Notes under the pieces: model-generated
What the model was told of the DNA's origin: nothing
Database searches by the model: none
What the model saw: the letters and a program-made list of their open reading frames with translations, nothing else
Translations under genes and position numbers: made by a program
DNA from: Euryarchaeota archaeon UBA605
Lineage (GTDB): Archaea > Thermoplasmatota > Poseidoniia > Poseidoniales > Thalassarchaeaceae
Reading direction: 5' to 3'
DNA length: 64,000 nt
Assembly: GCA_002504905.1 (NCBI GenBank)
Contig: DATY01000013.1
Location: 76,688 to 140,687, forward strand
Shown: one piece after another, positions 3,340 to 14,995 of the stretch
How the letters are laid out: each line of letters starts with the position of its first letter
How positions within the stretch are numbered: the first letter of the stretch is position 1

Positions 3340-4221
3340 TTGACTAGCGGCCGTATTATGGTCGCATTTGGTTATCATGGAAGTCACTTTCATGGTTCTC
3401 AGATTCAACCAGATGTTCCTACAGTGCAAAAGGCTATTGAAAACGCGTTAAGGAAGGTTAGTTGGTGGACTGATGGATGTCTAGAAATGTCCAGCAGAAC
3501 TGATGCTGGTGTTAGTGTAAGAATGAATCTTGCTTGTATAGACATACCAATTACGGTTTGGAATGAAGTAGAGAAAAAAACAATCCTTAGAGTTCTCAAT
3601 AATCGATTCCCTGAAGGTTTGTGCGCATGGAACTTGGTCAAAGTTGAATCTGATATCAGAAGCAGAGCTGCCATTAATAGGACATATCTTTATCGAACTG
3701 AATTAATTGAAGAATGGTCAGCAGGAATAGATGAAAAATTATTCATTGACTCTTGCAAATATATTGTCGGCACTCATAATTTTACAAATTTTTGTAAATT
3801 AGAAGAAGATAAGAATCCAATTCGTACCATTGATTTCTGTGAACCTTGGTACTCTTCTGATGGTAGAATAATTGGTATTCATATTAGTTCCGAGGCATTT
3901 TTATGGAATCAAGTTAGAAGAATAGCAGCGGCAATTACGGGTGTTGCAACTCGAAGAATTGATTTCGATTTATTCAAATCAGCATTACAAAATCCTGAAA
4001 CATCCTTAGATTTAGGAAGAGCACCCTCTAATGGCCTGATTCTTTGGTCGATTGAACACCAATTTTCTGAAAGAATGGGTTTAGATTGTAAACCAGACAC
4101 AACAGGTTTCTCTATGCCACCAGAAAAAAAATATCGATTTAAGAGATGGTTATCCATGGCGAAGTTAGAGATGGGGATGTTAATTGAAAGAGATTGGGAA
4201 TCTTCTCTTAATTTAATTTGA
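3340..4221 (+). CDS. truA: tRNA pseudouridine(38-40) synthase TruA
   Basis: GYHGSHFHGSQIQ, catalytic SRTDAGV, GTHNFTNF, FLWNQVRRI and APSNGLIL motifs. TTG start preceded by a G-rich RBS. Confidence 0.92.
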   Translation: MTSGRIMVAFGYHGSHFHGSQIQPDVPTVQKAIENALRKVSWWTDGCLEMSSRTDAGVSVRMNLACIDIPITVWNEVEKKTILRVLNNRFPEGLCAWNLVKVESDIRSRAAINRTYLYRTELIEEWSAGIDEKLFIDSCKYIVGTHNFTNFCKLEEDKNPIRTIDFCEPWYSSDGRIIGIHISSEAFLWNQVRRIAAAITGVATRRIDFDLFKSALQNPETSLDLGRAPSNGLILWSIEHQFSERMGLDCKPDTTGFSMPPEKKYRFKRWLSMAKLEMGMLIERDWESSLNLI

Positions 4222-4642
4222 TTTCTAATTTATCCCCATCATTACATGGAAGAGATTCTCTTAGAAATGAACCCGAAATTACTTCTGCTGTTTCCGTATG
4301 TCTTGTTAGGTCTGGAATCAATATTGCACATTCTATCCAATTTTTTCCATCGGACGAAATTTTGGCAAGAAAAGCCGTTGCTCCTCCAAAAGATTTACCA
4401 TCTCTTTCAAAACCTTTAATCCTAAGCGGCTTAGTTTTTAGTTTGACTTCACCTTCCTCAAGCCCTGATAAAATTCTTAAATCTTGATAGTTTGACAAAC
4501 TTGATTTTTCCATATCGAGGTTTAAGGTTCCAGGCCATGCACTGACTTTGAGAACTTTCTTAAATTGTTCTTGGTAATGTGGTTGAGCCATGAATATATG
4601 CGCTCTTCCTAGTCCGCTGGACACTTTGCCATACAGGTGCAT
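4208..4642 (-). CDS. ribK: CTP-dependent riboflavin kinase (archaeal, no HTH domain)
   Basis: GKVSSGLG...WPGTLNL...FGG...IPDLTRH...E...LRESL pattern of DUF120/RibK. Confidence 0.88.
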   Translation of the reverse strand: MHLYGKVSSGLGRAHIFMAQPHYQEQFKKVLKVSAWPGTLNLDMEKSSLSNYQDLRILSGLEEGEVKLKTKPLRIKGFERDGKSFGGATAFLAKISSDGKNWIECAILIPDLTRHTETAEVISGSFLRESLPCNDGDKLEIKLN

Positions 4643-4689
4643 GATTAACCGCCTATTTCTTCATTCAAGAGGCTTACCGCTAGAATATC

Positions 4690-5577
4690 CTATAATGTTA
4701 GCACATTGCCCATTTCGGCGATTTTCCAGCCATTAAGTTCAACAATTTTTCTTTGTTTTGAATTGATATCATTCACTGGATTTGAGTGATTTAGATGTAA
4801 AAATGAGATTTCAGGATCATCTTCCATTTTCTTACCAAGGAGTTGCAGACTATCTTGTATTGTAGGGTGTGGTATTTCTGAAATATTTCTCCCAGGTAAT
4901 TCCTCCATACTCCAGAAAGTTCCATCAATTAGTGCTTCATCGATATCAAAAATTCTGAAAAAATCTCTAACATTATCTTTCGAATAATATTCCAGTGTTT
5001 TTTCCCATGAATCTTGATCTGGCATAAATAAGATATTTCTTTCCTTTCCATTTATAATTATTGCAGAAGTATCTCCTAATTCACTTCTATGAGGGATAGG
5101 AATAAACTGTAGTGAAAAACCACATCCTTCTTTTGGCTCAAATGGTTGATAAAATTCCTTTGCATGTGTTCTAATATTGTCATCTTCAATCATTAATCTA
5201 ATATCACTTCTATTATCGAAATTTTTCTTATTTTCTCTACTAAGGAAGATATCAATTTTTTTTAATCCCATTACAGGTTTCCCAAATTGTCCAATACCTT
5301 CTATATGCCCTAGATGTAAGTGACTAATTGACACAGTTTCAGGAATAAATATTTCTTTACCTATTGTTGTCCAAATCATTAATTGCTCAGATAGATTTTT
5401 TGTAATTTCAATAATGTGCTTGGACCCATCAGACCCAATAACTCCTAAACATACAGGATATTTTCTTAATTTGAAATCTTTGTGAGCTTCCATACAAGTT
5501 CTACATGAACAACCAGATTGTGGGATGCCACCATCTTGAGCAGTACCCAATATTGTTACGCTAACTCCTGATGTCAT
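4690..5577 (-). CDS. PqqB-like metallo-beta-lactamase-fold hydrolase
   Basis: GTAQDGGIPQSGCSCRTC, SHLHLGH, PIPHRSE, DGTFWS, IPHP and HLNHSNP motifs. Likely start MTSGV at 5577. Confidence 0.8.
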   Translation of the reverse strand: MTSGVSVTILGTAQDGGIPQSGCSCRTCMEAHKDFKLRKYPVCLGVIGSDGSKHIIEITKNLSEQLMIWTTIGKEIFIPETVSISHLHLGHIEGIGQFGKPVMGLKKIDIFLSRENKKNFDNRSDIRLMIEDDNIRTHAKEFYQPFEPKEGCGFSLQFIPIPHRSELGDTSAIIINGKERNILFMPDQDSWEKTLEYYSKDNVRDFFRIFDIDEALIDGTFWSMEELPGRNISEIPHPTIQDSLQLLGKKMEDDPEISFLHLNHSNPVNDINSKQRKIVELNGWKIAEMGNVLTL

Positions 5578-5674: not shown

Positions 5675-6856
5675 ATGGCTGCGGACACTTCATGGATGAC
5701 ATCACGTTTCAGCGAGATTAAAAAACAGGGTTTAGATTGGAATCCACCTACTCTAGAAACGTCCAATGATGCGAGATGTGTTATTGATGGTAAAGAGACA
5801 ATAATGCTTTCTTCAAATAACTATCTTAATCTAACAAATCATCCAAAGGTCATTGATGCTATGATTTCTGCTACACGCAAGTATGGGGCCGGTAGTGGCT
5901 CAGTTAGGGCAATAGCTGGTACAATGGATATTCATCTTGAAGCGGAGAAAAAAGTTGCTGAATTTAAGAAAGTAGAATCCTCTTTAATTTATTCCGCAGG
6001 TTATACTGTTAATGTGGGTTTAATTCCAACATTGGTTAGAGGTTCAGAAGATGTAATAATCAGTGATGAATTAAATCATGGCTCTATAATCGATGGAGTA
6101 AGGCTAACTAAAGCACGTAGAGGAGTTTATTCACATAATGATATGGGGGAATTGGAGGCAGTGCTCAAAGAAAACTCAGATGCTGAAAGAAAATTAATAA
6201 TCACTGATGGAGTATTTTCAATGGACGGAGACATAGCTCCATTGGATGAAATTAGTAAGTTAGCCGACGAATACAATTCAATGATTTTTGTCGATGACTG
6301 CCATGGAGAAGGTGTCTTAGGTGACAAAGGTGCAGGTATAGTTGATCACTTTAACTTACAGGGAAAAGTTGATTTCGAAGTTGGTTCATTTTCTAAAGCA
6401 TTAGGGGTCCAGGGAGGAATTCTTGCAGGCTCTAAGGAAGTCAGAAATCATGCACTGAATCACTCTAGATCATGGCTCTTGTCAGGTAGCCAACCACCCG
6501 GTGTTGCAGCGGCACAAAAAGCCGCAATTCAGGTTCTGATGAGTGAGCCTCAACATCATTCTAGGCTATGGGATAATACTAACTATTTCCGTAAAGAATT
6601 ACAATCACTAGGTTTTGATACAGGTTTTTCTGAAACTCCAATCATACCTATAATGTGTGGCGAATCCTTAGTAGCTAAACAATTATCTGAAGAACTTGGC
6701 AAGAGTAATATAATGGCAGGCGCAATAGTGTTTCCAATGGTTGCTAGAGATAGAGCCAGAGTAAGAACGCAAATGTCTGCTGGACTAAGTCGCGATGATC
6801 TAGATAGCGTACTTAGGGTTTTAGAAAACATTGGTCCTAAATTAAAATTAATATGA
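5675..6856 (+). CDS. kbl: PLP-dependent 2-oxoamine synthase (glycine C-acetyltransferase / AONS family)
   Basis: SSNNYLNL, SDELNHGSIIDG, DGVFSMDGD, VDDCHG, GSFSKALG and RVRTQMSA motifs. Confidence 0.8.
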   Translation: MAADTSWMTSRFSEIKKQGLDWNPPTLETSNDARCVIDGKETIMLSSNNYLNLTNHPKVIDAMISATRKYGAGSGSVRAIAGTMDIHLEAEKKVAEFKKVESSLIYSAGYTVNVGLIPTLVRGSEDVIISDELNHGSIIDGVRLTKARRGVYSHNDMGELEAVLKENSDAERKLIITDGVFSMDGDIAPLDEISKLADEYNSMIFVDDCHGEGVLGDKGAGIVDHFNLQGKVDFEVGSFSKALGVQGGILAGSKEVRNHALNHSRSWLLSGSQPPGVAAAQKAAIQVLMSEPQHHSRLWDNTNYFRKELQSLGFDTGFSETPIIPIMCGESLVAKQLSEELGKSNIMAGAIVFPMVARDRARVRTQMSAGLSRDDLDSVLRVLENIGPKLKLI

Positions 6857-6865
6857 GTTGTTATC

Positions 6866-7291
6866 ATGGTCCAAACCTCATCCTTAGATAAAAATACGAT
6901 TAATTCAATGTTGGAAAGAATAAATTCTGTTCCAATTACTGAAACCCTGAATATGAAAATATTGAGGCTCGATAAAGGTGAATGTGAGGCCTTTATTCCT
7001 AGAGATACCATGTGGGATGGAATTTTTGAAACATTCCATGGAGGAATTCTTGCTACAATCGCAGATAGCATTACTTGTTGGTCTATTTTAACAAAAATAG
7101 GTTCTGATCGAAAAGTTGCAACTACAGATTTTAATATTAGATTTTTACGACCTTGTAAGACTGATGTCAGATGTGTAGCTAAAGTGATCAAGGCAGGGCG
7201 AACATTGAGTCTGGCAGAAGCAGAGATTTTCGATATGGAAGGTAAAATAGTTGCAATTTCACAAGTAAATTATATTTCACTTGATTCATGA
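6866..7291 (+). CDS. PaaI-family hotdog-fold thioesterase
   Basis: FHGGILATIADS and TTDFNIRFLRP motifs; 141 aa. Confidence 0.88.
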   Translation: MVQTSSLDKNTINSMLERINSVPITETLNMKILRLDKGECEAFIPRDTMWDGIFETFHGGILATIADSITCWSILTKIGSDRKVATTDFNIRFLRPCKTDVRCVAKVIKAGRTLSLAEAEIFDMEGKIVAISQVNYISLDS

Positions 7292-7909
7292 ATCTAATTC
7301 TTCTATAGCATTCTCTAATTCGTTGAAATTTTGTTCACTTAACTCAGGATTTTCTTTTTCTAAATATATTGTCTTCTTCATACCCTCAAATGGATTTAAG
7401 TCTCTATCTATTCTTTCAATCATTCTCCACCTTGGGGCATAAGATATTTGGATATATATTGGCCCTGGAGAGATCAAAATGAAATATCCTAGTATTTGTA
7501 ATTCTTCAGGGGTAGAGAAAATTATCGTTATTGTAGTGATAAAGAATCCAACGAATGGCAATGGGTAGAGATATCTTCTCCTTCTTTCTAGCCTTACTGG
7601 CGGTATTTTTATCAAAGAAGAAATAACAGTTGAAATAGCACCCAATGAAGCACATAAAAGGATTATTATTAAGCTTTGAAAACCCCATTTCTCTAGTATA
7701 TCTATACTACTTTCAGAATTAGAGTTCCCATCATAAAACATTGGTAATAAAAGTGTTAAGTTTATTATAATTGCATAAACAATACCTACAAAAACTGGAC
7801 TTGAGATTGACAGAGAGTAATTCAAGAATAGTTGACTAATCGAGCCTCCTTCAAGCATATGCCTATGCTCATCATCGTATTCTTCGAGGCGTTCGCGCCA
7901 ATTAGGCAT
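7286..7909 (-). CDS. Hypothetical membrane protein
   Basis: 207-aa ORF with about 4 hydrophobic segments; fills the gap between genes. Confidence 0.6.
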   Translation of the reverse strand: MPNWRERLEEYDDEHRHMLEGGSISQLFLNYSLSISSPVFVGIVYAIIINLTLLLPMFYDGNSNSESSIDILEKWGFQSLIIILLCASLGAISTVISSLIKIPPVRLERRRRYLYPLPFVGFFITTITIIFSTPEELQILGYFILISPGPIYIQISYAPRWRMIERIDRDLNPFEGMKKTIYLEKENPELSEQNFNELENAIEELDS

Positions 7910-9232: not shown

Positions 9233-10372
9233 TCATGAAGATCTATTTCTGTGCGATTTACCAGTTCCTCTATGTCCGATTATTCTTGGGGCTTCCCAGG
9301 GTAAACTCGATGATGAAGTTTCTTTTATTAATGATTCAATACTTCTCTCCCAAGACCATCTTTTCTTCCAATTAGATATGAAATCTAACCTTTCGCTGTT
9401 AGAAAGTTCATGCCAGGGAGGGATCTCTTTTTTCATTTCATTAACTTTGTTTAGATGTTGGTCGATTGGAGTGTCGTCTAATTCTTTTCGCTGTTTAATT
9501 GTTAGAGGTTGTGTAGCTGGTTTTGTCCATCTCGCGTGGCCCGAATCAAGAGTCACTGAAGTCGGAGCAAGATCATCCGTAAGTCCAGTTAACCCTGCAT
9601 CCAGTAACATTCTTTCAGCATTCGATTTAGAAGGCCAGACATAAATCGGATATCCTTTCCTAAATTTTGTCAGTCTTTCTAATTTCTTCCCTTGTAGACC
9701 AACTGTTCTACCTAAACTTAGGTTACTTTCAATTCCTTTGAGATATTGTAAAGAGCAAGGTAACATTGGAGATTTTTCTCTTCTTTGCTTTTCCATTAGT
9801 CTGGGTAGTGAATTTAGAATAAATGATGGAGTAGCAACGATTCTCTGTGATGTCCAATTACCCCATGAACGTATATTTGGCCTTAATCTACTAAATTTCA
9901 AATTAGTTTTCACTTTTTTAGATGCCGATATAATCTTCGGTTCAAACGAATAAATAACTGCGCCACTATCTGGTAAATCAATAGGTTCTAAGATTTCATT
10001 TAATTGTTCAATCATCTTAATCATATGTTTTTCTCTTTCATTTCCATTTAACCAACCTCCCGCTTTACCACTACTTGGATGTGGGGTCTTAAATTCAAAA
10101 CATGTGAATGCTCCCTCTTCAGTCCATCTTCTAATGAATTCTTTTTTCTCTAATAAATCATCTATTGGCTCTACATAATCAGGTAATTCATCCAACGTCA
10201 AACATTCGGGATATTCTCCAAATTCGGTTTTTGAATCATGATGGAGAACAAGTCGATTATCTTCCGATAATCTCAAATCTAATTCTACTCCATCGCATTC
10301 ACTCATTCCATAAACTAATGCTTCAACAGTATTTTCTCTGGGACGAATCCATTGACCATAATCTTCGTCCAT
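9233..10372 (-). CDS. Glycerophosphodiester phosphodiesterase family protein, circularly permuted
   Basis: Starts with RENT..A...GVELDLRLSEDNRLVLHHD, has FEFK and GLTDD, while the IIGHRG motif lies at the C-terminus. Confidence 0.8.
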   Translation of the reverse strand: MDEDYGQWIRPRENTVEALVYGMSECDGVELDLRLSEDNRLVLHHDSKTEFGEYPECLTLDELPDYVEPIDDLLEKKEFIRRWTEEGAFTCFEFKTPHPSSGKAGGWLNGNEREKHMIKMIEQLNEILEPIDLPDSGAVIYSFEPKIISASKKVKTNLKFSRLRPNIRSWGNWTSQRIVATPSFILNSLPRLMEKQRREKSPMLPCSLQYLKGIESNLSLGRTVGLQGKKLERLTKFRKGYPIYVWPSKSNAERMLLDAGLTGLTDDLAPTSVTLDSGHARWTKPATQPLTIKQRKELDDTPIDQHLNKVNEMKKEIPPWHELSNSERLDFISNWKKRWSWERSIESLIKETSSSSLPWEAPRIIGHRGTGKSHRNRSS

Positions 10373-10468: not shown

Positions 10469-12274
10469 ATGAGCATGTCAGATACAATAGAACTTGACCG
10501 AGAATCAGATCCAATAGAAGTTAGAGGTTACGCTTTTTACGATTGGGCTAAATCAGCATTTGAGACCTCTGTAACCGTTGCAGTATTGCCTGCATGGTAT
10601 GCATATCTCTTCTTGAAGGCTAATGGATTAACAACAACCATTGGTTCTATAGAGATGCAAGGGGATGCTGTTTGGTCATTTGCAGTGGCAATTGGTACAC
10701 TTTTTATTGCAATCATTAGTCCATCTTTGGGTGTGATTGCTGATAGAAGAAGAATCAAGATGTGGTGGTTAAGAATACTCACCTATGTAGGTGCAGGTTC
10801 AACTTTCCTTCTAGCATTCGCTCCACTTTTACCTATTGAAACTCAGTGGGTATGGCTAATGGTATTCTTCATGCTAGCTAACGTAGGCCTCAATGGGGCT
10901 GGTGTATTCTACAATGCTCTTCTCCCACATATGGGTAAAGATGATGAGATGGATAGAATTTCTAATTTAGCATTTGCATATGGTTATCTCGGCGGAGGAA
11001 TTTTACTTCTGGTTCATCTTATTATGGTAATGACATTAACTGGAGATTGGGTAATTCCTTTCGTTATGGCTTCATCAGGTATATGGTGGTATAGTTTCGC
11101 TTTATTGACATTCAAATGGGTTCCTGAACCGCCAATTGAGAATGAGATGCCATCTTTAGGATTCGTTTCATCGGCAAAATTAGCAATTTCTGAGATTAAA
11201 AAAACTATTAGTGAAGTTGAAAAATTTAGAACACTCTTCATTTACATGCTAGCATACTTCTTCTTCATTGATGGAATTAATAGTGTGACTGCTCTTGGAG
11301 GTGTATTTGGATCAACTGTACTTGGAATAACAACTGTCGACTTGATTATTACAATTTTAGCAATTCAATTTGTAGCTTGGCCATCAGCATTATTGTTCAC
11401 TAGACTTGCAAGAAAATTGGGCACTAAATCTGCATTAAATATTTCTCTTGTTGGATGGGTTATACTTTGTTTTGCAGCCCTTTCTTTCGCTCCTCTCGAG
11501 TATTCTGATCATGCCGACTATCAAGTTCAATTACATGAAGAACCTGAAGAAGGAGTTTGGTACTTTACTCCTCATGAAAATCTACTTGATTTCCCTATAG
11601 CTCAGATTGAAGGTGGGGATGAGCAAGAGTGGGCAAAATTAAGTCTTGCAGGAATTGTTGAAGTCGATGAAGACTACACTGATACAGAAATTTACAAATG
11701 GGCTGGATTCAATGACGACAATGAACCTATAGCGATTAATTTAGGGGCACTAGGTTCAGATATAAATGATATAATTAATTCATTTGAAGATACTAGATTT
11801 TCTGTAAGCGCTATTTATGGTGATATGAGCGAAATTTCTGTTGTTGGCATAGACCATCCAACAAATCTAGGAGATGGTGTAATTGATATCATTCCGAGTA
11901 CAGTTAGAGATAAAGTTTGGGAACCTCTTGGCCTTACAGTTGGTCTACAATTCTTAATCCTAGGTTGTGCAATGGGTACATTGCTTGGCGGTTCTCAAGG
12001 GCTAGCAAGAAGTATGTTTGGTCAAATGGTTCCAGAAACTAGAAGTGCTGAATTCTTTGGTTTCTTTGGTTTCTTTGGAAAAGTTGCAGCATTCATCGGA
12101 CCATTGTTGTATGGTTTAATGACAGTAATGTTTGATAGTAGAGTTGGAATCTTATCTATAGCAATGCTAATCCTAATTGGAGCAGTAATGATGCGAATGG
12201 TTGATCTTGAGCAAGGACGCTTAGATGCACAAGCAGAAGATGCTAAAAATAGAGGAATTCAAACTGAAGATTGA
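10469..12274 (+). CDS. MFS transporter (UMF1/Atg22-like) with large inserted soluble loop
   Basis: YDWAKSAF, FYNALLP, FFIDG, GGSQGLARSMF...AEFFGFF...GP motifs of the UMF1 family. Confidence 0.88.
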   Translation: MSMSDTIELDRESDPIEVRGYAFYDWAKSAFETSVTVAVLPAWYAYLFLKANGLTTTIGSIEMQGDAVWSFAVAIGTLFIAIISPSLGVIADRRRIKMWWLRILTYVGAGSTFLLAFAPLLPIETQWVWLMVFFMLANVGLNGAGVFYNALLPHMGKDDEMDRISNLAFAYGYLGGGILLLVHLIMVMTLTGDWVIPFVMASSGIWWYSFALLTFKWVPEPPIENEMPSLGFVSSAKLAISEIKKTISEVEKFRTLFIYMLAYFFFIDGINSVTALGGVFGSTVLGITTVDLIITILAIQFVAWPSALLFTRLARKLGTKSALNISLVGWVILCFAALSFAPLEYSDHADYQVQLHEEPEEGVWYFTPHENLLDFPIAQIEGGDEQEWAKLSLAGIVEVDEDYTDTEIYKWAGFNDDNEPIAINLGALGSDINDIINSFEDTRFSVSAIYGDMSEISVVGIDHPTNLGDGVIDIIPSTVRDKVWEPLGLTVGLQFLILGCAMGTLLGGSQGLARSMFGQMVPETRSAEFFGFFGFFGKVAAFIGPLLYGLMTVMFDSRVGILSIAMLILIGAVMMRMVDLEQGRLDAQAEDAKNRGIQTED

Positions 12275-13068
12275 GATGTTGTAAAAAATTTATCGATCAA
12301 CAGTGCAACTTCCAATAATAATACAATTGGTCCTCCCACTAAGAACATTGAAATCGGGTCTGGAGGTGACAGTACAGCTCCTAGCAATAGTGCAAAAAAC
12401 CAGATTAATCCTCTATTTTCAGTCAAACTTGATCTACTAATTATCCCAGTTCTTAATAGTAATAATGTCACTAAAGGTGTTTGAAAACTCATTATAGATC
12501 CAAAGAAGAGACCTATAACAAATCCTAACCATGACTGTAATTGCCAAGTATTAGTTAATCCAACATTACTTGCATCATTTGCTAGAAAATCTAGAAGCAT
12601 TGGAATTAGTATATTATGAGCATAAATAGCCCCAATTATTCCTAGTCCAATCGAAGAAAGGGATACTAAAAATAAAATCAAAATTTTAGATTTTTTTTGG
12701 TTAATCTTTTCTGTATTGGATTTATTAATAATTTTACTTCCATTCCATGACATGTCTATAATTATCATAGTAAATGCCATTGCTATCGCTATCTGTGTTG
12801 CAATTCTTAATCGTAGTAAGATCACTTCCATAGGCTGAATAATAATTAATTCAACTCCCTCGGGAAGGTATCCGTTTGCTTGTAAAAACCAACTAATTAT
12901 ATCTCCTGAGATAGGATAACCTAATGCTAAACCAAAGATAAAGATACCAAAAATTAGAGTAATTCTACCTCTTAGATATCTAACTAGATTTACAAATTCA
13001 GCCATAGGGATAATGTCCCTCTGCCTGCCTTCCATGTAACTGCGTAGGCGTTCAGTTACTGAATACAT
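12259..13068 (-). CDS. tatC: Twin-arginine translocase subunit TatC
   Basis: Six TM segments, QPME, FQTPL and LSPPDPIS motifs. The ATG at 13068 removes the overlap with the upstream GTPase. Confidence 0.82.
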   Translation of the reverse strand: MYSVTERLRSYMEGRQRDIIPMAEFVNLVRYLRGRITLIFGIFIFGLALGYPISGDIISWFLQANGYLPEGVELIIIQPMEVILLRLRIATQIAIAMAFTMIIIDMSWNGSKIINKSNTEKINQKKSKILILFLVSLSSIGLGIIGAIYAHNILIPMLLDFLANDASNVGLTNTWQLQSWLGFVIGLFFGSIMSFQTPLVTLLLLRTGIISRSSLTENRGLIWFFALLLGAVLSPPDPISMFLVGGPIVLLLEVALLIDKFFTTSQSSV

Positions 13069-13082
13069 CGCTGATAGATTTT

Positions 13083-14198
13083 CTATCTTCTCAGTATTAT
13101 TGAGAGAATATCTCCATCTTTTAGAAGGTGATCTAGACCCACTCTTTGCCAATCGAATTTACCGCTCGGCCCTTTAACTCTTGCATATCTAAATTTTCTT
13201 ACGAAATCCCTATGTAATTTTACACAAACATCTCTTACTGTAGATGTATCTTTGATAATCAGTGGCTCTACTAAATCAGCTTCTTGACCTTGAGGCTTCA
13301 GAAAAATAGACATGAAACGTAAATTTTCAAATACAAAATCTTTCATATTCACAATACCTTTTCCTGTTTTTGCTGATACTTCAAGTACTGGCCAATTGAG
13401 TGGGATCATTTCCATAGTTCTTTGAATATCTTTTTCATTTGCTAAATCCACCTTATTAATTACCACGACTGCATTGCTGTAAACTCTATTTCCTGCCAAC
13501 GTGTCTACGATATGATCATCTGTCACATCTGTTCTCAATGTAACGGTTGCAGAAACAATTCCAAAACTTCTTACAATTTCTTGAATCTCTTCATGAGTTA
13601 GATTTGTTTGTTTAACTGTGGATCTAACAACGATACCACCTTTATTTGATCTTGTAATGAATACCTGAGGTTTCTTTTGGTTTAATCTCATACCTGCTCT
13701 CCATAATTCTAAGTCTAATATGTCGAAGTGAGATTCTTGGAACGGATCAAGAACGTATAATACCATATCTGCCCCTCTAATTACATTAAGAATCTCTTTC
13801 CCTCTACCTTTTCCTTCTGCTGCTCCTTTGATTAATCCTGGCAAATCAAGAATTTGTATCTTAGCACCTTTATGTTCCATCAAACCTGGAATACAAGTCA
13901 GTGTCGTAAATGCAAAATTTCCTACTTCTGATTCCACTTCTGTCAACTGAGATATAAGGCTTGATTTTCCAACGCTTGGAAAGCCCACTAATGCTACAGA
14001 GGCATCTCCTGATTTCTTAACTTCGAAACCTGGCCCGCCTCCACTAGATTTAGCGTGAGCCTGTGCTTTTTCTTTTCGCGCTTTAAGTGCTGCAATTTTA
14101 GCCTTCAATTTTCCAATATGGGCATTTGTAGCTTTATTTTTTTGCGTTTTTCCAATTTCTTCTTCCAGAGATTTGATTTGCTCATCGATTGTTGCCAT
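13083..14198 (-). CDS. DRG/OBG-family GTPase with TGS domain
   Basis: TQKNKATNAHIGKLKAK, GFPSVGKS, FTTL, DLPG, NKVD and a C-terminal TGS domain. Confidence 0.93.
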   Translation of the reverse strand: MATIDEQIKSLEEEIGKTQKNKATNAHIGKLKAKIAALKARKEKAQAHAKSSGGGPGFEVKKSGDASVALVGFPSVGKSSLISQLTEVESEVGNFAFTTLTCIPGLMEHKGAKIQILDLPGLIKGAAEGKGRGKEILNVIRGADMVLYVLDPFQESHFDILDLELWRAGMRLNQKKPQVFITRSNKGGIVVRSTVKQTNLTHEEIQEIVRSFGIVSATVTLRTDVTDDHIVDTLAGNRVYSNAVVVINKVDLANEKDIQRTMEMIPLNWPVLEVSAKTGKGIVNMKDFVFENLRFMSIFLKPQGQEADLVEPLIIKDTSTVRDVCVKLHRDFVRKFRYARVKGPSGKFDWQRVGLDHLLKDGDILSIILRR

Positions 14199-14317: not shown

Positions 14318-14995
14318 ATGGCAGATGTAATTCTAAATCTTGTTCATCATTCTAATTTTAAAAAATTAGTATCATTACCCCTTCAAGAATTATTTGAAAA
14401 AGTAGAAGATAGCTCATTGAGAAATTATCGACCTGAATTAGATAATCGATTCCATAGAGATTTTGATGTTGATTTAGAAGGAGATATAATGGAATGGTCT
14501 GATAAAACTCCAGGTCTAGTATTATCTGATAATTTATATTCTCAACCAATTAAAGAATCAGAAATTGCTGAATTAACAATTCTTTTGGCGAAATGGTGTT
14601 CATTTTCGGAATGGCGTTGCTGGGATGCTCGTCTCTTTTTGTATGTTGAACCTATGTTGAAATACAATATTTCTAGTCCTAATGAATTCCTTAATTTTTC
14701 ATTATGGAATGATTTCATGAATTCGCTATCGAAAACTGATAGGAGATCCTACTCGGAATCAGTGGTTCTTGATTGGATGAGTAGGAGAGAAGAATTAGGG
14801 GAAACAATGGAGCCTTCCGAGGATCCTAGAATATTGCCTACTATGAATTCTCATAGAACTTCCAGTGAATCATTACACATATTTCTCAATAGTTTTGACT
14901 CAAAAGATATTAGTTTACTTATTGGTCGGGAATATTTAGAACATGAGTTATGGAGTCTTAATGGAAATTTTTTATACGGAGTGAAGGTGGATTAA
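14318..14995 (+). CDS. Hypothetical protein
   Basis: 225-aa ORF, co-oriented and 2 nt upstream of nadM. Confidence 0.6.
   Translation: MADVILNLVHHSNFKKLVSLPLQELFEKVEDSSLRNYRPELDNRFHRDFDVDLEGDIMEWSDKTPGLVLSDNLYSQPIKESEIAELTILLAKWCSFSEWRCWDARLFLYVEPMLKYNISSPNEFLNFSLWNDFMNSLSKTDRRSYSESVVLDWMSRREELGETMEPSEDPRILPTMNSHRTSSESLHIFLNSFDSKDISLLIGREYLEHELWSLNGNFLYGVKVD

Follow-up and report, generated by a model that had tools for sequence, protein, structure and literature searches.

In glycerophosphodiester phosphodiesterases (GDPDs) of canonical order, the strand that carries the HRG motif comes first and is followed by a short loop and then by the ENT motif. The locus described here raises the question of whether an archaeal protein of this family carries that strand at the opposite end of its chain, and whether a protein built in this way would still be an active phosphodiesterase. 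The former had been proposed in a first-pass annotation of the DNA, according to which β-strand 1 and its catalytic histidine now stand at the C terminus.

Reading frame, element order, and conservation

The window, i.e., the whole stretch of 64,000 nucleotides that was analyzed, contains an intact open reading frame on the reverse strand (9233..10372; TGA stop at 9233–9235), which encodes a GDPD-family protein of 379 residues. The protein begins with MDEDYGQWIRPRENT, just before the PRENT element, and its C-terminal sequence is ...LPWEAPRIIGHRGTGKSHRNRSS, with PRIIGHRGTGK as the ending. An in-frame stop codon is found 5 codons upstream of the ATG, and no HRG is encoded upstream of this start in any of three frames over 330 nt, as the first-pass annotation had stated. 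A divergent gene starts at 10469, on the upstream side.

The protein matches the Pfam family PF03009 (GDPD) with a score of 30.7 bits, above the family cut-off of 23.6. The match spans profile positions 10–159 only, which indicates that the first strand of the domain is not located at the N terminus of the protein. A profile of the permuted family matches the known structure 2pz0 (E = 1e-8), and hhalign comparisons of the permuted families with a canonical-order profile gave probabilities of 99.5 to 99.9. The canonical order, with the HRG strand first, is not found in this protein, in which HRG corresponds to residues 367–369 of 379. Because HRG is located at the C-terminal end and is lacking at the N-terminal end, we classified the protein as a permuted variant rather than as an ordinary GDPD.

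The first conserved element of the chain is PRENT (residues 11–15; 10328..10342, reverse strand, as are all elements described here), in which P11, E13, and N14 are invariant or nearly so. The next element, GVELDL (residues 28–33; 10274..10291), is a predicted barrel strand with the putative ExD metal ligands E30 and D32, and it is followed by LHHD (residues 43–46; 10235..10246), a hairpin strand with the invariant H45 as the likely second catalytic histidine. In a profile alignment, E30, D32, and H45 pair with E44, D46, and H59 of 2pz0. The barrel strand FEFK (residues 92–95; 10088..10099) carries the invariant E93, by motif the third metal ligand, and K95, and would be the counterpart of the IEIK strand, again judged by its motif. 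GLTGLTDD (residues 260–267; 9572..9595), with the invariant residues G260 and D266, corresponds to β8, the last canonical strand. From there, a Trp-rich helical region of 94 residues (268–361; 9290..9571) leads to PRIIGHRGTGK (residues 362–372; 9257..9289), the putative relocated β1 with a strand at 364–367 in the model and the catalytic pair His367–Arg368. The chain ends in a variable tail (residues 373–379; 9236..9256), which has pLDDT values below 50 for residues 376–379 and would represent the cut end of the ancestral β1–α1 loop. The first-pass annotation had read a start before RENT, the motifs GVELDL, LHHD, FEFK, and GLTDD, a helical linker of about 90 residues, and a C-terminal PRIIGHRG at nucleotides 9266–9289. 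All motifs were recovered where it had placed them, the coordinates of the last one are exact, and the linker, for which four helices are predicted, comprises 94 residues between D267 and P362.

A protein search yielded 141 relatives with lengths of 371 to 379 residues from many independent marine assemblies, the record names including Candidatus Thalassarchaeum, Euryarchaeota archaeon, and Thermoplasmatota archaeon. In 23 relatives, with identities down to 47%, both the C-terminal R-[IV]-[IV]-G-H-R-G and the N-terminal P-x-E-N are invariant. An exhaustive profile search added approximately 18 more divergent full-length representatives. In an alignment of 33 sequences, with identities down to 32%, the invariant residues are H45, E56, E93, K95, F143, P165, G260, and D266, as well as R281, W282, W320, R363, H367, R368, G369, and G371, while E13, N14, E30, and D32 reach 90% conservation or more. 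Among 246 full-length sequences of the permuted GDPD family, 245 have HRG within their last 30 residues, and none (0/246) has it within the first 60 residues, the arrangement in homologs that the first-pass annotation had named as a sign of misassembly.

In the lone exception among the 246, P0098, the tail is divergent, apparently as the result of a frameshift in this single record. We found nothing in favor of the idea that the permuted order arose through an error of assembly, gene calling, or sequencing frame. Against this idea stand hundreds of independent assemblies with the same length and the same order, closed or nearly closed genomes that carry the gene (e.g., the single-contig genomes G003 and G027), and the stop codons upstream of the ATG. 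The order of the elements is real; an artifact has practically no chance of being the explanation and is refuted.

A six-frame search of whole genomes covered 121 genomes of the Poseidoniales (Marine Group II), of which 120 contain this form of the protein, hereafter the long form; all of the 21 genera represented have it (21/21). At E ≤ 1e-20, no long form was detected outside the Poseidoniales in the sampled genomes of the phylum. A long-form permuted GDPD, in an open frame of 390 residues, was observed at 3959–5128 of locus L028, which belongs to a sediment metagenome-assembled genome (MAG) named “Methanobacteriota archaeon Guaymas_26” (G373). The canonical order is seen in all of the retrieved bacterial relatives that have an HRG, in which this motif lies upstream of ENT (12/12), and in a second GDPD-like gene of the same genome, the 200-residue product of which has an N-terminal GHRLG followed by ENT, ExD, HDD, and ExK.

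De-permutation and the predicted barrel

When the C-terminal segment was placed ahead of the rest of the sequence computationally, the Pfam score of the protein increased from 30.7 to 36.5–39.4 bits, and the match began at profile position 1. All five other members analyzed, which include long and short forms, also gained (5/5; 6/6 with the present protein), their scores going from 53 to 55.4, from 19.9 to 26.5, from 35.9 to 37.2, from 42.1 to 42.6, and from 32.7 to 35.1 bits. The gain is modest in some members and ranges from +0.5 to +8.7 bits overall.

Profile–profile alignments were made with hhalign, using a profile of five canonical-order GDPDs as the template. De-permutation increased the local score of the long family from 164.6 to 187.3 (+22.7) and that of the short family from 156.3 to 177.0 (+20.7), and the start of the match on the template shifted from column 21–22 to column 10. 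In these alignments, RiIGHRGxGk is paired with the canonical iiHRG strand, and PENT is paired with PENT. The joined termini appear as an insert of 12 residues in the long form and of only 4 residues in the short form. The profile alignment places the cut site in the loop between β1 and helix 1.

Structure prediction with AlphaFold2 (AF2), based on the 33-sequence alignment, gave a mean pLDDT of 92.2 and a pTM of 0.91, and all five models had values above 90. With only the 23 close sequences as input, the pLDDT was 62.9, values falling below 50 at the C terminus and throughout the second half of the chain. The long strands of the model, as assigned by DSSP, comprise residues 28–35, 89–94, 138–142, 159–162, 204–207, 243–246, 262–265, and 364–367, and the model also contains a hairpin at 41–43, which is the carrier of the HD histidine in GDPDs. 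The block of residues 361–370 has a pLDDT of 96, and the number of eight barrel strands is reached only if the C-terminal strand, 364–367, is counted. Isolated β-bridge residues at positions 12 and 372 would fit an arrangement with the two chain ends side by side, although we take this as a suggestion only.

In a Foldseek search against the PDB, the top 14 matches were all GDPDs (1o1z, 7e0v, 4oec, 2pz0, 3qvq, and others), with TM scores, normalized by target, of 0.51 to 0.68. The predicted fold is a TIM barrel of the GDPD type. Since Foldseek aligns structures sequentially, the relocated strand is beyond what such an alignment shows. The first-pass annotation had made the proposal depend on where a model would put the C-terminal HRG. 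In the model, the C-terminal segment is not disordered and forms an eighth long strand; that this strand docks at the place of β1 we infer from the strand count, the local confidence, and the placement of the catalytic residues. Mutual information (MI with APC, 245 sequences) between residues 364–366 and the rest of the protein gave top-ranking pairs that look phylogenetic, and the strand is nearly invariant; because it hardly varies, and with an Neff of about 72, covariation is uninformative here. For the central claim that β-strand 1 and the catalytic histidine have become C-terminal, conservation, de-permutation, the AF2 model, and the Foldseek matches all point in the same direction.

Active site, helical region, and alternative explanations

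The complete catalytic inventory of canonical GDPDs is present, namely two histidines, an arginine, three acidic metal ligands, and a lysine. The best-supported reading of the sequence is that of an active, metal-dependent GDPD that would use the usual general acid/base chemistry of the family. No signal peptide and no hydrophobic or transmembrane segment is evident when the sequence is read by eye, and the lack of such an N terminus suggests that the enzyme is probably cytoplasmic. Taking all observations together, we consider it highly probable that the protein is a cytoplasmic, probably active, metal-dependent GDPD with a circularly permuted TIM barrel.

According to this model, the chain would start in what is usually the loop after β-strand 1, at P-x-E-N-T, and strands 2 to 8 would follow in their normal order. 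The helical region of 94 residues would come after β8, and β-strand 1 (R-I-I-G-H-R-G) would form the end of the chain, where it is expected to dock between strands 8 and 2 and thereby close the barrel. The closing strand would bring His367 and Arg368 next to E13 and N14, the ligands E30, D32, and E93, and the residues His45 and K95. The chemistry would be that of canonical GDPDs, in which two histidines act as general acid and base to convert a glycerophosphodiester to glycerol phosphate and an alcohol. A consequence of this architecture would be that the active site is complete only after the last 15 or so residues have been made and have docked.

Four helices are predicted by AF2 for residues 268–361. 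Conserved positions in this region are R281–W282, W320, W341, and P358–W359, and comparison of the region with Pfam and with PDB sequences gave no match. The region starts directly after β8, at the catalytic face, and it could possibly act as a lid, as a substrate-selecting element, or, if the substrate is a lipid, as an interfacial element. In a protein encoded at 3950–5032 of locus L027 (an uncultured Poseidoniales MAG), the helical region is some 25 to 28 residues shorter, and the first two helices are missing. For three genera (g5, g11, and g17), matches are split over the helical region, which is either shorter in these genera or too divergent to align. Together, L027 and these genera indicate that the length of the insert is variable within the Poseidoniales.

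Three other explanations of the protein deserve consideration, the strongest of which concerns its substrate. The protein could be a lipid-acting, GDPD-like phospholipase of the lysophospholipase D type, with the Trp-rich region serving as a lid that binds membranes or selects head groups. Such a function would make sense of the tryptophan content of the helical region (6 of 94 residues, 6.4%, compared with 2.2% outside this region), with several of these tryptophans being conserved, and of the position of the invariant R281–W282 right after β8, at the catalytic face; moreover, Foldseek also matches a lysoplasmalogen phospholipase D (7ymp) and a lysophosphatidylglycerol phospholipase D (8ghh), at lower rank. 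On the other hand, the best matches, in structure as well as in sequence, are soluble GDPDs, a signal peptide or transmembrane segment is not evident, and the helical region is partly missing in some Poseidoniales, as in L027. We consider a lipid-acting enzyme unlikely.

The remaining two explanations concern the C-terminal strand itself. The helical region could be an arm that donates the HRG strand in trans, such that, in a domain-swapped oligomer, each strand would complete the barrel and the active site of a neighbor. A linker of 94 residues is far longer than is needed for joining β8 to β1, for which the Heimdallarchaeota form described below has about 18 residues, and the AF2 model, being that of a monomer, is blind to swapping. 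However, this monomer model is confident throughout, linker and strand included (pTM 0.91), and the short-linker form shows that members of the family are able to close the barrel in cis; we regard donation in trans as improbable. More improbable still is a C-terminal HRG that is conserved for reasons unrelated to β1, such as binding by the tail, on a barrel that lacks the canonical β1 histidine and that would be non-catalytic or use another mechanism. This idea draws on the fact that the position of the strand is deduced and on the small Pfam gains in some members (from +0.5 to +8.7 bits across those analyzed); yet the motif is the hydrophobic-hydrophobic-G/A-H-R-G signature of the family, aligned profile to profile, the other catalytic residues are conserved, which would be unexpected in a pseudoenzyme, and strand 364–367 is needed to bring the strands of the model to eight. 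The permuted, probably active GDPD is the preferred explanation, and it is the one considered in what follows.

Short form, gene context, and glycerol-phosphate metabolism

Among the weaker matches of the profile search are four proteins of 252 to 280 residues (P0237, P0256, P0217, and P0270) that are permuted in the same manner. In this short form, approximately 18 residues separate β8 from the HRG strand, and there is no helical region. A scan with one genome per species detected the full-length short form in six MAGs recorded as Heimdallarchaeota (Asgard archaea) or simply as archaea. In each of the corresponding loci (L021–L026), the match lies at about 4001–4820 and corresponds to about 270 residues. 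The short forms begin with L-P-N-[TE] and end with I-I-A-H-R-G-[TS]-G, and no HRG was found upstream of them in the six loci; neither did we find conserved neighbors of the short-form gene in Heimdallarchaeota. The long and short forms are collinear from ENT to β8 (hhalign probability 99.85%; E = 1.2e-30). We know of no description of this short permuted GDPD of Heimdallarchaeota.

A maximum-likelihood tree was built on the shared core, after removal of the HRG strand and the insert, using 27 permuted sequences and 17 canonical ones, the latter taken only from the nearest matches. A single branch (SH-aLRT 90) separates all 27 permuted sequences from the 17 canonical ones, so that one change of state suffices. 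Most likely, a single permutation occurred in a common ancestor of the long form and the compact Heimdallarchaeota form, the SH-aLRT value of 90, which is below 95, representing moderate support, and the expansion of the linker would, most likely, have taken place later, in the line leading to the Poseidoniales. Transfer between the Poseidoniales and Heimdallarchaeota lineages, as an alternative to linker expansion by descent, is also consistent with the data.

In 12 of 12 loci across the Poseidoniales, citrate synthase is arranged tail-to-tail with the permuted GDPD, with TatC on the other side. In the window, a gene for an Atg22-like MFS transporter of 601 residues (10469–12274, forward strand) is divergent from the GDPD gene. 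This transporter lies between GDPD and TatC in one family of Poseidoniales only; in the other family, TatC is directly adjacent. Gene context was considered as a clue to function and rejected, since what is conserved is gene order, with no operon partner. The TatC reading frame (12259–13152, reverse strand) has a TTG start and overlaps the end of a Drg-type GTPase frame (13083–14198, reverse strand) by 70 nt; translation of TatC probably begins downstream of the start that the longest open reading frame would suggest. Two further frames in the window, at 7286–7909 (reverse strand; 207 residues) and 14318–14995 (forward strand; 225 residues), have no Pfam match and have syntenic homologs across the Poseidoniales.

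The second GDPD-like gene, with GHRLG, is located at 1444–2046 of locus L001 (reverse strand), a locus with a masked stretch at 2291–2999; together with its upstream gene, it is found at 6415–7425 of contig C24 in genome G000. This canonical-order gene for 200 residues lies directly downstream of, and on the same strand as, gpsA, which encodes an NAD-dependent glycerol-3-phosphate (G3P) dehydrogenase. The same adjacency is seen on contig C4 of genome G069, and the two genes possibly form a gpsA–GDPD operon.

The distribution of the enzymes for the two glycerol phosphates was compared with that of the permuted GDPDs. In the Poseidoniales, which have the long form, PF13685 (the G1PDH family) was detected in 0 of 21 genomes, and PF07479 (GpsA, of the bacterial type) in 18 of 21, including all of those of high quality (7/7). 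A sister family of the same class, with no permuted GDPD, has PF13685 in 6/8 and GpsA in 0/8 genomes. In the Guaymas MAG (L028/G373), which carries the long form, GpsA is present and PF13685 is absent, and the Heimdallarchaeota genomes with the short form have PF13685 in 6/6 and GpsA in 0/6 cases. PF13685 was detected in all archaeal control genomes (4/4). The first-pass annotation had suggested that the enzyme of an archaeon with ether lipids may act on unusual glycerophosphodiesters. In view of the counts for the Poseidoniales, the ordinary background of ether lipids based on sn-glycerol-1-phosphate (G1P) should not be presumed for this order, and a GDPD that yields G3P would fit their apparent metabolism. 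The co-occurrence of the long form with GpsA and with the lack of G1PDH comes from essentially one lineage, so that it provides a lead only and may reflect shared ancestry. One could speculate that the long form, with its Trp-rich region as a lid, helps supply the glycerol-phosphate backbone of Marine Group II lipids through an unusual regio- or stereochemistry, for example, by generating sn-glycerol-1-phosphate from glycerophosphoglycerol; we consider this a long shot. If true, sn-glycerol-1-phosphate released from the head-group side would feed ether-lipid synthesis without G1PDH.

Compared with canonical GDPDs (PF03009, of the UgpQ/GlpQ type, including 2pz0, 1o1z, 4oec, 7e0v, and 3qvq), the permuted GDPD has the same TIM-barrel fold, as judged from the model and Foldseek, and the same catalytic inventory (HRG histidine and arginine, ENT, ExD, HD, and ExK), on the basis of which the same chemistry is predicted. 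In contrast to them, the long form is shifted cyclically by one strand, with β1 being last, and has the 94-residue helical region and an idiosyncratic center (residues 163–240). The short form of Heimdallarchaeota shares the permuted order with the long form, whereas its genomic background differs in that G1PDH is present and GpsA is absent. The GDPD-like lipid phospholipases D, i.e., 7ymp, 8ghh, and the spider SicTox enzyme, have the same fold and catalytic core in canonical strand order, and extra elements near their catalytic face select lipid head groups; they are weaker structural matches than the soluble GDPDs, and the helical region bears no sequence similarity to them.

Natural permutations of TIM barrels include the GH70 glucansucrases relative to the GH13 α-amylases and transaldolase relative to the class I aldolases. 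In these cases too, the shift is cyclic and the active site is kept, although the superfamilies and the cut points are different. As permuted TIM barrels have thus been seen in other superfamilies, what is new here is limited to a variant of GDPD. To our knowledge, natural circular permutations that relocate a catalytic strand are rare. In full-text literature searches, we came across neither a circularly permuted GDPD or PI-PLC-like phosphodiesterase nor any discussion of a GDPD in Poseidoniales; one paper treats GDPD as a toxin domain only, with the usual order HRG, E, ExD, D, H (PMC3482391).

The permuted GDPD is likely to interest specialists in protein evolution or archaeal lipid metabolism, its chemistry probably being ordinary. 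An active site that would be finished by the last 15 or so residues makes the protein a useful test case for the folding and evolution of TIM barrels, and the long form and the Heimdallarchaeota form provide a natural series of linkers, the shortest of about 18 and the longest of about 94 residues, around one rewiring. Because standard domain models cover only part of the domain, proteins of this kind are under-annotated, some records being labeled “hypothetical protein.” The permuted GDPD is a core gene of the Poseidoniales, which are among the most abundant archaea of the surface ocean, and their genotype, with GpsA and without G1PDH, puts the long form near the question of the glycerol-phosphate backbone that these archaea use.
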